Under the pieces are notes generated by a model that was given only the letters and a program-made list of their open reading frames with translations, had not been told where the DNA came from and did not search any database. Below, in pieces: positions 1 to 6,295 of a stretch of DNA of 64,000 nucleotides. The position numbers and the translations under genes are program-made. The stretch comes from an uncultured delta proteobacterium (GTDB lineage: Bacteria > Desulfobacterota > Desulfobacteria > Desulfobacterales > SG8-13): assembly GCA_963848135.1 (NCBI GenBank), contig CAWKCK010000017.1, forward strand, positions 962,538-1,026,537, read 5' to 3'. How positions within the stretch are numbered: the stretch's first letter is position 1; each line of letters begins with the position of its first letter.

Positions 1-69
1 GGTATTGAACAAAAATAACGCCGCCAGGGAAAAGCAGATAAAAATCAGGGCAGGAATCAGATTACGCAT
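1..69 (-). CDS. N-terminus of an exported protein running off the window; by position possibly MlaA/VacJ
   Basis: ATG at 69 reads MRNLIPALIFICFSLAALFLFNT (signal-peptide-like), directly downstream of mlaC. Identity rests on synteny only. Confidence 0.5.
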   Translation of the reverse strand, partial: MRNLIPALIFICFSLAALFLFNT

Positions 70-130: not shown

Positions 131-757
131 TTACCCACTAATTTCTTTCTGTTGTTCCTGCTCCTTGATCTTCTGCTTGAGGCGATCGATGACCTGCTTT
201 GCTGATTCTTTTTCGAATAGATCCCGAAACTGGATTTGATAGTTTTGGACCAGGCTGACGCCTGCAACATAAACGTCGTAAATTTTCCACTGACCCTCCG
301 TTATACGCATGCTATAATCAACGTCTATATTCCCGTCCGAGGATGGAACTCTGGTTTTGACTTTGGCCCGTTTACGGGCCTGGTCGATATCCTGGTCGAG
401 ATATTCAACGGTCATCCCTTTGTCGTCTCCACTGATCCGGGTCAGATACGTGTTGCCGAGAAAATGGGCAAAGAGTTCCGTAAATTCCTGCCGCTGCTGG
501 GGAGTAAAGCTGTTCTCCCAATGGTAGCGGCCGGTTGCCCTTTTGGCTATCAGGTCGAAGTCAAACATGGGTTTTGTAATCGATCGGATTTTCTCGCGTT
601 GATCACCGCGCCGGGCAGGATCATCATACTGTGGATCATCGAGAATCTCAATCACCTGTTGTATAGGAGCTTTGAGCGCATCGACCGGCTGTCCGATTTC
701 AGCAACCGCTGAAAGTGCGGTCAATAGAATGATCGACAGGCAAATGGTACCTTTCAC
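131..757 (-). CDS. mlaC: MlaC/Ttg2D periplasmic phospholipid-binding protein
   Basis: Signal peptide; FDFDLIAKRATG and WKIYDVYVAGVSLVQNYQIQF motifs; operon with mlaDFE. Confidence 0.9.
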   Translation of the reverse strand: MKGTICLSIILLTALSAVAEIGQPVDALKAPIQQVIEILDDPQYDDPARRGDQREKIRSITKPMFDFDLIAKRATGRYHWENSFTPQQRQEFTELFAHFLGNTYLTRISGDDKGMTVEYLDQDIDQARKRAKVKTRVPSSDGNIDVDYSMRITEGQWKIYDVYVAGVSLVQNYQIQFRDLFEKESAKQVIDRLKQKIKEQEQQKEISG

Positions 758-836: not shown

Positions 837-1283
837 CTACACCTGTCCGAAAACAAATTTGCTGATCAACTCCTCGATGTCTACCGCGGATTCGGTTTCT
901 GTTATCATCTCCCCCGGTTTCAAAGGAACATCTGACACCCCCGGAGATATCTTTATGTACTTGTCTCCGATAAGCCCTGTCGATTTGATCGAAGCAATCG
1001 CATCCTCTGTTAGCGTGACGTTCTTTTCAATCTTCATCTTGACCACGGCCATCCAGCGTTCCTGGTCCAGAGCAATTCCTTCCACCTGTCCGATGGGCAC
1101 CCCGGCAACCTCCACCTGCGACCCGGTTTTCAATCCCGCTATCGACTGAAATCGCGCGGAAATTGAATAGTAATTGTCACCGATGATTTCCATTTTCCCG
1201 AGACGTATGGTTAAATACCCTATACAGACAATGCCGATAAGCACGAAGATACCCACAGCAGTCTCCGTCGACAATTTTCTCAT
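837..1283 (-). CDS. mlaD: MlaD MCE-domain protein
   Basis: N-terminal TM; FQSIAGLKTGSQVEVAGVPIGQV and GLIGDKYIKISPG MCE motifs. Confidence 0.95.
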   Translation of the reverse strand: MRKLSTETAVGIFVLIGIVCIGYLTIRLGKMEIIGDNYYSISARFQSIAGLKTGSQVEVAGVPIGQVEGIALDQERWMAVVKMKIEKNVTLTEDAIASIKSTGLIGDKYIKISPGVSDVPLKPGEMITETESAVDIEELISKFVFGQV

Positions 1284-1298: not shown

Positions 1299-2510
1299 TT
1301 AGCACACACGGAACTCGAACAGGCTTTCCTTCTTGGCTTCGGCACTGGCCAAAACCTGTTCGATATTGCTTCCCTTTTGGGCCTCGACAATACCGGCACT
1401 GACCGTAAAACAGGTGTTCGGTTGGGGCAGGATCTCCACGAGATCCTCGGCCTTGATCAACTTGGCTAGCTTGGCACAAAAAGCCCGTGCCTGCGCTTTG
1501 TTCGTATTGGCAAGCACCAGCAGTATTTTGTTCATACCGTAGCGTGAGCAGGTATCGGTGATACGAATATGGTGCTGCAACTGTAGGGCAAAATTTTTCA
1601 ACGCCAACTGGCTGGCTTTGTATCCAATCGATTCAATAACTTCATCGAGATCTTGAACGGTCAACAACACCAGTGAAAATGCTATTTGGTGGCTCTGCAG
1701 GCGCAACATCTCTTCTCGGAATTTTCTATCACCGGCTTGCTGTGATGCCAGCCCCGTGAGGTCGTCGCGACGACTTTCAAGACCAGTGATAAATTGCCGG
1801 ACCAGCGCGTCTTCCGTGTACTGAATCTCTTCGGCTGTACCTTCGAAAAGTATTTTGCCTTCCTCCAGCATGGCAATGCGTTGGGAAATGTAGAAGATAT
1901 TGGGGATGTCGTGACTGACGACAACACCCGTGAATCCGAATTTTTTCTGGTAATCCGAGATCATGCTGTAAACGACACCTTTGCGGATCGGATCCAAGCC
2001 GGTTGTGGGTTCGTCAAAAAGAACGATTTCTGGATCCGTCACTAATGCCCTGGCCAGCGCCACCCGTTTCTTCATACCACCTGAAAGGTGAGAAGGATAT
2101 TCATCGTCGATATTGTGCAGATCGAGTTTCGCCATTTTATCATGTACCCGATCACGAATTTCTTCCCGCGGCAGGGATGATTTTTCCGCCAGCGGCAACG
2201 CAATGTTCTCAAATATCGTCATCGAGTCGAAAAGGGCCGTACCCTGAAACATGTAACTGAACTTGCGTTTAATGTCCGCCCGTTCCTTTTTGGGGGCAGC
2301 GCCCAAAGGTGTACCGTTGAAAAGTATCTCCCCCGAATCCTGCCGGACAAGACCGATGATATGTTTTAACAGAACACTCTTACCGACACCGCTTTTACCG
2401 ATGATCGAGGTGATCAACCCCTTGTAGATACTGAGGTTGAGACCGTCAAGAACCCGGTGGTTGCCGAAACTTTTGGATACATTCTTAAATTCTATTAACG
2501 GCTGGTCCAT
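1299..2510 (-). CDS. mlaF: MlaF-type ABC ATPase fused to a C-terminal degenerate GGDEF domain
   Basis: Walker A GKSGVGKS, LSGGMKKRVALARAL, DEPTTGLDP; then DDLTGL...RITDTCSRYGMNKI...TVSAGI, a GGDEF-fold pattern. Confidence 0.9.
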   Translation of the reverse strand: MDQPLIEFKNVSKSFGNHRVLDGLNLSIYKGLITSIIGKSGVGKSVLLKHIIGLVRQDSGEILFNGTPLGAAPKKERADIKRKFSYMFQGTALFDSMTIFENIALPLAEKSSLPREEIRDRVHDKMAKLDLHNIDDEYPSHLSGGMKKRVALARALVTDPEIVLFDEPTTGLDPIRKGVVYSMISDYQKKFGFTGVVVSHDIPNIFYISQRIAMLEEGKILFEGTAEEIQYTEDALVRQFITGLESRRDDLTGLASQQAGDRKFREEMLRLQSHQIAFSLVLLTVQDLDEVIESIGYKASQLALKNFALQLQHHIRITDTCSRYGMNKILLVLANTNKAQARAFCAKLAKLIKAEDLVEILPQPNTCFTVSAGIVEAQKGSNIEQVLASAEAKKESLFEFRVC

Positions 2511-2516
2511 CAAACC

Positions 2517-3320
2517 TCACAGGAGGAAGGAAGTCAGAACATAATCTGTCACGAGAATCAAGACACAGGATTGAACCACCGCAGAGGTGGTTGATGAGCT
2601 GACACCTTTGGCGCCCTGTCCATTCGATCGACGGTGGGTGTTATATCCATAGTAGCAGCAGATGGTAATGACCACTACGGCAAAAACAATGGATTTGATA
2701 AATCCACCGGTAATATCCGTCATGAGGACGCTCGATTCAACCCGTGAGAAGTAGACCCCCGAGCTGAGTCCCAGCAGAACCGAGCCCGTCAGATACCCGC
2801 CAAAAATACCAATGACATCAAACAGGGCGGTTAAAATCGGAAAGCTGATCAGGGCAGCGGCAATCCTGGGACTGATCAGAAACTGTATCGGATTGATGTT
2901 CATGGTTTCCAGGGCATCGATCTGCTCTGAAATGCGCATGATCCCGATTTCTGCCGACATGGCCGATCCGGCCCGTGCGATGACCATAATGGCCGTTAGA
3001 ACCGGTCCCATTTCGCGAACCAGGGTTAGTGCAACCGCCGAGCCGAGTGAACCGGTAGAGCCGTATTTGACCAGTACGTAATATCCCTGCAGCCCCAGAA
3101 CCATGCCGGTGAATGCCCCGGTCAGACAGATGACGAATATCGACCGCGAACCGATAAAATTTATCTGTTGGAGAGTTTTCGGCACAATGGTGGGCAAGGT
3201 AAAGATCGAGGCGAATCCCTTGGCAAAGAAAATCATGATATAGCCCATCTCCCGCACCAGTGATATGGCAGATCGGCCAAGGGTGGTGATAGGCGAGGCA
3301 ACGGATTCTGATCGGTTCAT
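2517..3320 (-). CDS. mlaE: MlaE ABC permease
   Basis: LVREMGPVLTAIMVIARAGSAMSAEIGIMRISEQIDALETM signature; start set at ATG 3320. Confidence 0.95.
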   Translation of the reverse strand: MNRSESVASPITTLGRSAISLVREMGYIMIFFAKGFASIFTLPTIVPKTLQQINFIGSRSIFVICLTGAFTGMVLGLQGYYVLVKYGSTGSLGSAVALTLVREMGPVLTAIMVIARAGSAMSAEIGIMRISEQIDALETMNINPIQFLISPRIAAALISFPILTALFDVIGIFGGYLTGSVLLGLSSGVYFSRVESSVLMTDITGGFIKSIVFAVVVITICCYYGYNTHRRSNGQGAKGVSSSTTSAVVQSCVLILVTDYVLTSFLL

Positions 3321-3569: not shown

Positions 3570-5444
3570 ATGAGGGCCCCTGAAATGATCAGTATCGAAA
3601 ACTTATCTAAACGATTCGGAGATCATATCATTTTCGACACCGTCGGGTTCCAATTGAACCGTCGGGAACGTCTGGGGCTGGTCGGAAGGAACGGTCACGG
3701 TAAAACCACCCTGTTCAAAATGATCAGCGGCGAGGAACAACCAGATGAAGGCACCATAAATATTCCAAAGAACTACCGTATCGTTCATGTTCACCAAATG
3801 GTTGCCTTTACCGAGGAAACTGTTTTATCGGAGGCCGCGGTCGATTTACCGGAACACGAACGCGATCACCTGTGGAAAGCCGAGAAAATTCTCAGCGGTC
3901 TCGGTTTTTCAGACGAGGATATGCAACAACACCCTGGAATATTCTCAGGCGGATTCCAGGTCCGTCTCAATCTGGCCAAAGCCCTGGTGGCCGAACCCGA
4001 TCTGCTTCTGCTCGATGAACCGACCAACTATTTGGACATCACGTCCATAAGGTGGGTTAAAAGCTTTTTTCTGACCTGGCCGCGGGAGCTCATGCTCATC
4101 ACCCATGACCGCAGTTTCATGGACAGCATCGTGACCCATACCATGGGGATTCACCGTCAAAAATTGCGCAAAATAGCCGGTGGAACGGATAAGTATTATG
4201 CCCAGCTCGCCCAGGACGAGGAGATATACGAAAAAACCAGGCTGAACGACCAGCGCCGCCGCAAGGATATCGAGCAGTTCATCAATCGATTCCGCGCCAA
4301 AGCCAGATTGGCGAACCTTGTTCAATCACGAATCAAAACCCTTCAGAAAATGGAAAAACATGAAAAGCTCGAAAAGATCAAGACGCTAGATTTTTCGTTC
4401 AACAACGAGCCATTTCACGGGAAACATATGCTGAGCGCTGAGAACCTCGGCTTCTCGTACCACCCCCCAAAACCGTTGATTGATAATTTCAGTATGACCA
4501 TTACCGCCAATGACCGGATTTGTATCGTCGGTAAAAACGGTCGCGGTAAGACGACCCTTCTCAGGCTTCTGGGGGCAAGTCTTCGGCCAGGGGTCGGGAA
4601 CATTCGAAAGAACCCGAACCTATCCATGGGAACATTTGAACAGACCAATCTGAAAACACTCGTTGACACCCGTACGGTGGAGGAAGAAATCAATTGCGCC
4701 AATCCGGATATCAGCCGCCAGGCCGCTCGAAATATCTGCGGTGCAATGATGTTCGAAGGCGACAATGCGTTGAAAAAGGTGAGCGTGTTGTCCGGCGGCG
4801 AGAAGAGCCGGGTCATGCTTGGCAAGCTGCTGGTCACCCCGGTCAACCTCCTGCTACTGGACGAACCGACCAATCACCTGGATATGGAATCGTGCGACGC
4901 CCTGCTAGCCGCCCTGGATAATTTCGACGGGGCGGTTGTCATGGTCACGCACAACGAAATGTTTCTGCATCTTCTGGCACGCCGGTTGGTCGTGTTTCAA
5001 CCGGAAGGCATAGAGGTATTCGAAGGCAGCTACCAGCGTTTCCTTGAAAAAGATGGATGGCGGGAAAATGCCTTGCCCATAGCGACAGGATCCGCAGATA
5101 CGATGACCGCAGAAAAACCGGAGAAGGTCAACAGAAAAGAGCTGCGGCGCCAACGATCTGAATTGCTGGCGGAACGCGCCCGCATTCTGCGGCCCCTCGA
5201 GCAGGCCATATCTGCACTTGAAAATGAAATCGACACCAATGAAAAAAAACTCGATCGTCTCACCCAGGATATGCAAAAGGCGACCTCAGCCGGTAACGGG
5301 AATCAGATCGCCGAACTCTCCCAGGCCATTCATGCCTGCCAATCGGCAATAGACCGGCTATTTGACACGCTTGAAGCCCGCACAGAGGATTATGAAAACC
5401 ACAGGCGCGCCGCCGAAGAAAAATTGACAGACTTCGACACCTGA
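3570..5444 (+). CDS. ABC-F family ATPase (ribosome-associated)
   Basis: Two NBDs (GRNGHGKTT, GKNGRGKTT; LLLDEPTNYLD/LLLDEPTNHLD), inter-domain linker, C-terminal coiled coil, no TM segments. Confidence 0.92.
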   Translation: MRAPEMISIENLSKRFGDHIIFDTVGFQLNRRERLGLVGRNGHGKTTLFKMISGEEQPDEGTINIPKNYRIVHVHQMVAFTEETVLSEAAVDLPEHERDHLWKAEKILSGLGFSDEDMQQHPGIFSGGFQVRLNLAKALVAEPDLLLLDEPTNYLDITSIRWVKSFFLTWPRELMLITHDRSFMDSIVTHTMGIHRQKLRKIAGGTDKYYAQLAQDEEIYEKTRLNDQRRRKDIEQFINRFRAKARLANLVQSRIKTLQKMEKHEKLEKIKTLDFSFNNEPFHGKHMLSAENLGFSYHPPKPLIDNFSMTITANDRICIVGKNGRGKTTLLRLLGASLRPGVGNIRKNPNLSMGTFEQTNLKTLVDTRTVEEEINCANPDISRQAARNICGAMMFEGDNALKKVSVLSGGEKSRVMLGKLLVTPVNLLLLDEPTNHLDMESCDALLAALDNFDGAVVMVTHNEMFLHLLARRLVVFQPEGIEVFEGSYQRFLEKDGWRENALPIATGSADTMTAEKPEKVNRKELRRQRSELLAERARILRPLEQAISALENEIDTNEKKLDRLTQDMQKATSAGNGNQIAELSQAIHACQSAIDRLFDTLEARTEDYENHRRAAEEKLTDFDT

Positions 5445-5665: not shown

Positions 5666-6295
5666 ATGAAAGCCCAACGAATCCTCGTTGTTGAACAAAA
5701 CGGAAGTGGTGAGCAAAAGGTCAAGGGTCTTTTGACCCATGGCAGCGATTCATTTTTGGTTGAACGCTGGAGCATCGACACGCCGTTGGAACCGGTAATC
5801 GATGATGCCTCCGAATATCTACCAAAGAAAATCGACGCCGATCTCGTTCTCGATTTTTTGAAGCATCCGGACCTGACCCAGGATCTGGCGGAAATCTGCC
5901 GGCGTCAGGGAATCCCGGTTGTGGCTTCCGGGAAAAAACTGCGGCTGGAAGGGGTTTTGACACCGCCGACCTGATGTGGCCTTCCCCGGCAGGTGGGCCT
6001 GGGACAATACGGTGAACGATTCGGTGCACCGGAATTTTCGGTGCGATTGTCGGCCGGAAAGATTGCGAGCGTCGAGGTGGTTCGCGGCGCCCCATGCGGG
6101 GCGACATGGGAGGCCGCCCAGCGCATCATCGGCTTGCCGAAGGAGGAGGCGATCGTGCGAATCGGACTCGATGTCCAATATTACTGTACAGCCGACCCGG
6201 CCGGATGGGATCCGATTCACGGAAAGAGCCCCGTCCACTTTGCCGGTAAAGTCCACTCAGCCGCTTTAATGAGGGCCTTGTCAAAGCTTTCCTGA
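5666..6295 (+). CDS. DUF166-like protein, probable selenoprotein (Sec at codon 103)
   Basis: ORFs 5666-5974 and 5993-6295 share a frame and join through TGA 5972-5974 as TPPT-U-CGLPRQ; VVRGAPCGAT and YYCTA motifs; SECIS-like hairpin at 5983-6004. Confidence 0.8.
5983..6004 (+). promoter_or_regulatory. Candidate bacterial SECIS element
   Basis: Stem TCCC(C)GGC/GCC(T)GGGA with loop AGGTGG starting 16 nt after the UGA and a G in the second loop position. Confidence 0.6.

Follow-up and report, generated by a model that had tools for sequence, protein, structure and literature searches.

The lipid transporter MlaFEDB of Escherichia coli is driven by the ATPase MlaF, which dimerises through a C-terminal tail of 25 residues, the "handshake", while MlaB contacts the MlaF helical subdomain. 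An MlaF lacking the tail is described as largely rescued by a fused GCN4 zipper, and how Mla transport is regulated post-translationally is presented as an open question (PMC7367683). MlaB is sparsely distributed, and MlaABC is sparse outside the Proteobacteria (PMC10665443). In the transporter OpuA, c-di-AMP dimerises the C-terminal CBS domains of the ATPase and inhibits transport (PMC7673798). Among diguanylate cyclases, the I-site of PleD comprises an RxxD motif, R390 and, from the other domain, R313, and that of WspR is R242–D245 (PMC7288161). DgcR forms the same cross-link using another arginine of helix alpha0, with the third arginine out of contact, and a back-to-back geometry joining primary to secondary I-site is described for both DgcR and PleD (PMC8041772).

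Here we examine a 64,000-nucleotide stretch of a desulfobacterial genome (hereafter the window), in which the ATPase gene of an mla operon encodes a single protein, P0001, consisting of an MlaF ATPase followed by a C-terminal GGDEF domain (Table 1). The first-pass annotation of this DNA had recognised the fusion, and its length is corrected here to 403 residues, counted from the ATG.

Table 1. Features of the mla operon and of the fusion protein P0001, in window positions.
Feature	Position	Strand	Basis or remark
mlaE permease	2517..3320	-	Pfam MlaE E 4e-78; TIGR00056 over cut-off
mlaF::degenerate GGDEF fusion gene	1299..2510	-	403 aa, P0001, ATG at 2510; ORF, Pfam/NCBIfam and homologue family
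MlaF-type ABC ATPase domain	1779..2510	-	residues 1-244; Pfam, NCBIfam, motifs, Foldseek
Walker A GKSGVGKS	2376-2399	-	intact
Signature LSGGM	2073-2087	-	intact
Walker B LFDE	2010-2021	-	intact
H-switch	1908-1916	-	intact
Degenerate GGDEF domain	1335..1769	-	residues 248-392; Pfam PF00990 E 3e-16, fold search, dN/dS
R270, helix alpha0, candidate secondary I-site Arg	1701..1703	-	WspR R195 alignment; predicted dimer interface
Q301 (place of guanine-binding Asp, PleD D344)	1608..1610	-	conserved in both subfamilies
RITD, primary I-site RxxD, R316 and D319	1554..1565	-	aligned with WspR RSSD (R242-D245)
RYGMNKI (for RYGGEEF), destroyed active-site motif	1524..1544	-	WspR alignment
K347, third primary I-site position	1470..1472	-	Lys at same place in WspR
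mlaD, short MCE protein	837..1283	-	TIGR04430 over cut-off
mlaC periplasmic shuttle	131..757	-	Pfam MlaC E 1e-40
mlaA 5' end	1..69	-	runs past window, C17:962606-961752

Both halves of P0001 were identified by profiles and by structure. Pfam places ABC_tran at residues 21–170 (E 5e-35), and its GGDEF match scores 60 bits against a cut-off of 23.8. The best NCBIfam family is PRK11831 (MlaF, E 5e-62), although the score lies below the cut-off of the E. coli-type equivalog (210 vs 441 bits), and TIGR00254 GGDEF passes its own cut-off. Foldseek with a model of the whole protein put E. coli MlaF on top (6xgz/6xbd/6xgy, about 39% identity). P0001 is an ABC ATPase closest to MlaF, with all its Walker, signature and H-switch motifs in place. 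For the AlphaFold model of the GGDEF domain (pLDDT 77.9), the top matches of a structure search were GGDEF folds alone, with Foldseek concordant, including 5llw (Z 18.0, rmsd 5.2, 161 aligned) and PleD 1w25 (Z 17.2, rmsd 2.9, 158 aligned). Profile and structure checks of the C-terminus thus bear out the initial reading of a GGDEF fold on MlaF, and GMNKI in place of the active-site motif marks it as dead.

The gene order is mlaE-mlaF-mlaD-mlaC-mlaA with intergenic gaps of 6, 15, 79 and 61 nt; the mlaE-F-D-C operon first reported stands but runs on into mlaA beyond the left end of the window. Its mlaD has a single match genome-wide by tblastn, to itself. The fusion is best explained as the ATPase that drives the housekeeping lipid transporter MlaFED-C-A, for which homology suggests phospholipid as the substrate and a retrograde direction. 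A hopanoid substrate is not favoured: the squalene-hopene cyclase gene lies on another contig (G000 C8:8648-10456) about 7 kb from a separate MlaC-like gene (C8:18283-17726), likely a hopanoid cluster, and the MlaC of the operon falls far below the HpnM cut-off. A promoter scan gave 7 sites against 4.9 ± 2.1 in shuffled sequence, i.e. no excess. Divergent to mlaE is a gene for an ABC-F family ATPase (window 3585-5444, +), which adjoins in close relatives too (loci L001-L012 and L029). Beyond it, two apparent DUF166 ORFs (window 5666-6295, +) are one selenoprotein gene, in which an in-frame TGA is codon 103, followed by Cys; when read through, the product matches NCBIfam DfsP with 322.6 bits (cut-off 200).

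The first-pass annotation had also noted that mlaB is missing among mlaE-F-D-C and had let the GGDEF domain fill the position of MlaB. The absence is confirmed, because the intergenic gaps are too small for such a gene, and the whole genome (98.65% complete) yielded no MlaB above the NF033618 cut-off. All six STAS matches in the genome lie away from the operon, one of them as part of an MlaE-like gene that belongs to a second MCE system. Besides this operon the genome has two MCE-type mlaE/mlaF pairs, at G000 C2:175333-173491 and C2:571698-569935, the MlaE-like gene of the former having an N-terminal STAS domain. A missing mlaB is uninformative, however, because unfused relatives are also without it. 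No ORF in 20 unfused mlaF loci of relatives matched a STAS query by BLAST, none of 42 ORFs chosen from these loci matched Pfam STAS, and five genomes with unfused mlaF operons had no MlaB over the cut-off and no STAS_2 match at those operons. We therefore reject the absence of mlaB as a sign of replacement. Moreover, the GGDEF domain occupies the place of the C-terminal dimerising tail of E. coli MlaF, whereas MlaB sits on the helical subdomain, and replacement of MlaB is thus unsupported by position as well as by gene content.

Homologue searches from P0001 returned 27 clusters and later 220, of which the best 120 were all ATPase-GGDEF fusions, and among the matches listed the length of the fusion is near-constant (402–420 aa). 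In one locus, L018, a second and divergent fusion lies beside the first, and a search from it gave 1257 clusters (best 120 listed). We refer to the group of P0001 as subfamily A and to the sister group, delineated from the divergent fusion, as subfamily B; their GGDEF domains share about 21% identity, and with A and B fusions in one locus heterodimers are therefore possible. Of 301 genomes sampled from the host's phylum, 24 have a full-length fusion. In its order at least 99 of 201 genomes do, with 132 copies between them, two contig-end partials and 22 weaker matches being left out. Named relatives with the fusion include Desulfobacterales, Syntrophobacterales and similar groups, and the Atlas also holds clusters with Nitrospirota members. 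Both mlaE and mlaD flank the fusion in 79 of 88 subfamily-A copies. Across eight pairs, dN/dS was 0.06–0.21 in the GGDEF domain vs 0.04–0.11 in the ATPase; the fusions form a conserved family on which purifying selection acts. In a quick tree of the ATPase portion, all fusions fell in one branch (SH-aLRT 99) together with four long-branched unfused rows. An AU test on 65 of the 84 rows did not reject the fusions as one clade (p-AU 0.645), therefore neither domain loss nor a single origin is established: a single origin is plausible, and secondary loss in the four nested unfused rows gains no support from this test.

Some relatives do not have the GGDEF domain, and in the unfused loci L111, L112, L124 and L126 the protein stops just after the ATPase domain, without a tail. 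In two of these unfused operons, both from one family, a PilZ-domain gene lies directly 3' of mlaA (L124:8850-9290 and L126:3116-3547), which hints faintly, and separately from the fusion, that c-di-GMP may feed into Mla. Seven subfamily-B operons have at the corresponding place, after mlaA, a gene of about 250–280 aa without a Pfam match (L091:7190-8026, L092:9383-10117, L093:3049-3846, L094:9377-10180, L095:3208-3951, L096:6265-7062 and L101:9429-10181), and two of the seven gave no match in NCBIfam. Extra subfamily-B paralogues at L160, L162, L165, L166 and L168 have Leu for Pro after the Walker B Glu.

Alignment of RYGMNKI with RYGGEEF upholds the original observation of a destroyed active-site motif. 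The positions of the metal-binding Asp, the catalytic Lys and the guanine-binding Asn/Asp are taken by T284, D289, I292 and Q301, therefore diguanylate cyclase activity is, judging by sequence, excluded; together, GMNKI, T284, I292 and Q301 leave P0001 outside the active cyclases. The same is seen throughout the family, as none of 126 parsed copies has GG[DE]E and the catalytic and metal positions are lost in all copies. The I-site presents a different picture. RITD aligns with the WspR RSSD and has the canonical I-site spacing that the first reading noted, and the I-site is complete beyond RxxD, all four of the positions named in PleD being occupied by suitable residues (R316, D319, K347 and R270). 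WspR R195, which faces R270, we take from the numbering to be the equivalent of PleD R313, and K347 presumably stands at the PleD R390 position, going by its offset. P0001 therefore has the hallmark of PelD-type proteins, an RxxD placed five residues ahead of the dead motif together with further basic I-site residues. PopA is likewise a degenerate GGDEF receptor for c-di-GMP with a dead site and a kept RxxD.

Conservation of RxxD was counted in a taxon-even genome sample of the host's order, and residue frequencies were taken from one copy per genus (51 genera, 40% mean domain identity). RxxD occurs in 61 of 88 subfamily-A copies (by genus, 37 of 51) and in one of three unclassed copies, but in none of the 35 subfamily-B copies, all of which keep the GGDEF domain, and in none of six further B-like copies inspected by eye. 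The 27 subfamily-A copies without RxxD also keep the domain, and the full set of I-site residues is found in 40 of the 88. The expectation that fusions combine a dead active site with a conserved RxxD hence stands in its first half, for 126 of 126 copies, and in its second for the majority of subfamily A, where R316 also changes slowly, but fails for the remainder of subfamily A and for subfamily B, i.e. RxxD is not family-wide. A higher count from similarity-seeded matches (31/36, 86%) was biased upward and is superseded by 61/88.

Residue by residue, D319 never changes (51/51 genera), R316 is kept in 37/51 and R270 in 43/51, and position 347 is K or R in 41/51; position 273, facing WspR R198, is Arg in 32/51 and Ser in P0001. 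On the tree R316 needed 8 changes (with at least 7 changes of state) and R270 7, compared with 18.5 for the median domain column and a range of 17–31 in 13 of 18 basic columns; R316 ranks 33rd of 156 columns. Its substitutes are Y, S, N, G, D, A or E, the E/D cases being charge reversals. Slow change yet repeated replacement indicates that R316 is constrained but dispensable. The subfamily-A copies with E/D316 (L013-L014, L016-L020, L024 and L026) are separated from mlaE. Most are found immediately upstream of a gene for an RsbW-like kinase, and those at L013, L017 and L020 have a gene for a STAS anti-anti-sigma factor as neighbour.

The mere presence of RxxD says little, since it is the inherited default of the donor family, occurring in 112 of the 155 nearest intact GGDEF domains and in six of seven from the host genome. 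Equally or better conserved are C321 (48/51) and T318 (37/51), which have no c-di-GMP-binding role, and the old active-site residues Q301 (44/51) and R323 (49/51). K/R347 is kept in 50/61 copies with R316 and in 22/27 without, and in subfamily A loss of R316 is uncoupled from loss of either K/R347 or R270. This counts against a shared ligand, because a shared ligand would predict coupling. A coupled R316-K347 loss was seen in similarity-seeded homologues but was gone in a word-independent search and in the taxon-even sample, with just two independent pairs on supported branches. Subfamily-A copies without R316 make up 14/19 of those in genomes that also have a B copy vs 13/69 otherwise, in few lineages, and five RxxD copies each share their genome with an RxxD-less sister paralogue. 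Loss of RxxD through loss of c-di-GMP signalling is rejected for three genomes with RxxD-less copies (G139, G247 and G172), each with 11–20 GGDEF matches.

To model the dimer we used two copies of residues 236-403, i.e. the isolated domain, with four c-di-GMP molecules and three controls. The model scored 0.51 vs 0.00 for the best control, the ligand itself being outside the score; of 30 solved homodimers 20 attain the mark applied, as does one of 23 single chains, and the mark is approximate here, given an alignment of our own and the ligand carried in the run. Contact agreement between runs was at least 64% and pLDDT at least 74. The predicted interface is symmetric, with residues 262–276 (helix alpha0, 262–274) against 316–318 and 334–335 of the partner, so that the R270 helix packs on the partner's RITD loop, and direct contacts run via I317, T318, E266 and L269. 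T318 and E266 are conserved in the fusions and variable in ordinary GGDEF domains, whereas the polar residues of the interface, taken together, show no clear excess of conservation over the remaining polar columns (P 0.11). The modelled geometry resembles cross-linked PleD/DgcR and may reflect memorised solved complexes. As the ligand was included unscored and solved look-alikes exist, the model therefore speaks for compatibility, not for binding, and as a prediction it does not tell a dimer bridged by ligand from one in direct contact.

The best explanation for the added domain is a regulatory domain derived from a diguanylate cyclase. The host genome encodes 17 GGDEF domains, nine with canonical or near-canonical active-site motifs, besides 2 EAL and 28 PilZ matches. 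Our preferred reading, which we hold at nearly even chances, is a c-di-GMP-cross-linked regulatory dimer below the ATPase, similar to OpuA. Two dead GGDEF domains would pair back to back under the MlaF ATPase dimer, in the manner of ABC ATPases of the OpuA and MetN type with their dimeric C-terminal regulatory domains, replacing the E. coli handshake tail, and dimeric c-di-GMP would bridge R316/D319/K347 of one subunit to R270 of the other. This cross-link would tie the ATPase domains together, and high c-di-GMP would then most likely brake the transport cycle, a sign proposed by analogy with OpuA, while in lineages without RxxD the domain would be retained as a ligand-independent module. The full claim, that an ABC lipid transporter is directly gated by c-di-GMP via a cyclase-derived domain on its ATPase, we put forward tentatively and consider rather doubtful as yet. 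If true, outer-membrane lipid homeostasis would be tied to the motile/sessile switch in Desulfobacterales and their kin, and the I-site-less sister paralogues would be c-di-GMP-blind versions of the same machine, sometimes in the same genome.

The retention of the domain throughout the family, despite repeated loss of RxxD, is best accounted for if the dead GGDEF domain acts without a ligand, as a clamp that dimerises or stabilises MlaF and so does the job of the E. coli handshake, with RITD kept for the dimer interface or the fold and not for c-di-GMP. We regard this explanation as a substantial possibility, somewhat short of even. It agrees with genomes that have RxxD-less copies being still rich in cyclases, with the conserved direct contacts T318 and E266 of the dimer model, and with the GCN4 rescue of tail-less MlaF, which indicates that plain dimerisation is useful in E. 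coli (PMC7367683). However, the need for a clamp is not obvious when many unfused relatives manage with no tail at all, the slow change of R316 and R270 is left unaccounted for, and the polar interface as a set does not stand out. The c-di-GMP-cross-linked dimer and a ligand-free clamp can also both hold, in different lineages.

The conserved residues of the old active-site face could instead mean that it takes another nucleotide (such as GTP, ATP or ppGpp) or interacts with a partner protein, or that the cysteines form a redox or metal sensor. Polar residues common to the subfamilies lie on this face (H297, Q301, R323 and N327), Q301 replaces a guanine-reading Asp kept by 138 control domains, and degenerate GGDEF domains with other ligands have precedents in CC3396/PdeA, a GTP sensor, and YybT, an ATPase (PMC7288161). 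The cysteines 321, 345, 367 and 403 of P0001 fall within window 1302-1550, C321 and C345 flanking the I-site as a possible metal or redox site; this pair is found in 43/51 genera, and Cys near 367 together with Cys near 403 in 40/51, as well as in 11/20 of the sister subfamily. Nevertheless we think such a role improbable, given that the metal ligands and the phosphate-binding loop are gone (positions 284, 289 and 327), that Y297 and I292 stand in P0001 for the usual H and N, and that R323 and G296 are general fold residues. It is hardly credible that the domain is a relic devoid of function, or that assembly or annotation created it as an artefact, even though some relatives manage without it: 132 copies in 99 genomes of the order have a single continuous frame, dN/dS is low and length steady, and these same observations refute the artefact reading outright.

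We found no description of an MlaF-GGDEF fusion in the full-text literature; subscription journals and supplements (e.g. the PMC10665443 dataset) lie outside this scope and may list the architecture. The main texts of two studies that treat MlaF in the context of this group (10.1101/2025.07.29.667474 and PMC10686091) contain no GGDEF. The database entries seen label the fusion generically as "ATP-binding protein", and automatic Pfam calls show both domains. The fusion is real, conserved and apparently undescribed, and the family is a candidate built-in regulatory domain for Mla. Should c-di-GMP be bound, ABC ATPases would become a new effector class, and c-di-GMP would be linked directly to lipid traffic at the outer membrane in a major group comprising sulfate reducers and syntrophs; should it not, a transporter has still taken on the fold of a signalling enzyme as a structural component, in about half of the order's sampled genomes. 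The natural variants with and without RxxD are ready-made controls.

The closest described transporter, MlaFEDB of E. coli (6xgy, 6xgz, 6xbd; Kolich et al. 2020, PMC7367683), shares with this locus the ATPase fold, at about 39% identity, and the partners MlaE, short MlaD, MlaC and MlaA. It differs in that the 25-aa handshake tail gives way here to a folded GGDEF domain of 150 aa, MlaB is absent and mlaA lies inside the operon. OpuA (PMC7673798) offers a parallel to the proposed mechanism, as a cyclic dinucleotide dimerises the C-terminal domains of its ATPase, but it combines a CBS fold, c-di-AMP and an osmolyte importer where we have a GGDEF fold, putative c-di-GMP and an MCE lipid transporter, and the two regulatory domains are not homologous. 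PelD (PMC7288161, 4dmz) has a dead active site and a kept RxxD as seen here; it is, however, a membrane protein regulating a polysaccharide synthase, in which c-di-GMP binding is shown whereas here it is predicted, and the fold match to PelD (Z 10.3, rmsd 4.3, 122 aligned) is weaker than to active cyclases (Z 16–18). PleD, DgcR and WspR share both I-site positions (primary and secondary) and the back-to-back geometry with the predicted dimer (PMC8041772, PMC7288161), yet are active cyclases behind receiver domains, and the proposed input/output logic would be reversed here, an ATPase being under the control of a GGDEF domain. LtmA of Mycobacterium smegmatis likewise couples c-di-GMP to lipid transport, but as a transcription factor acting on genes, whereas here the domain sits on the transporter itself (PMC3526308).
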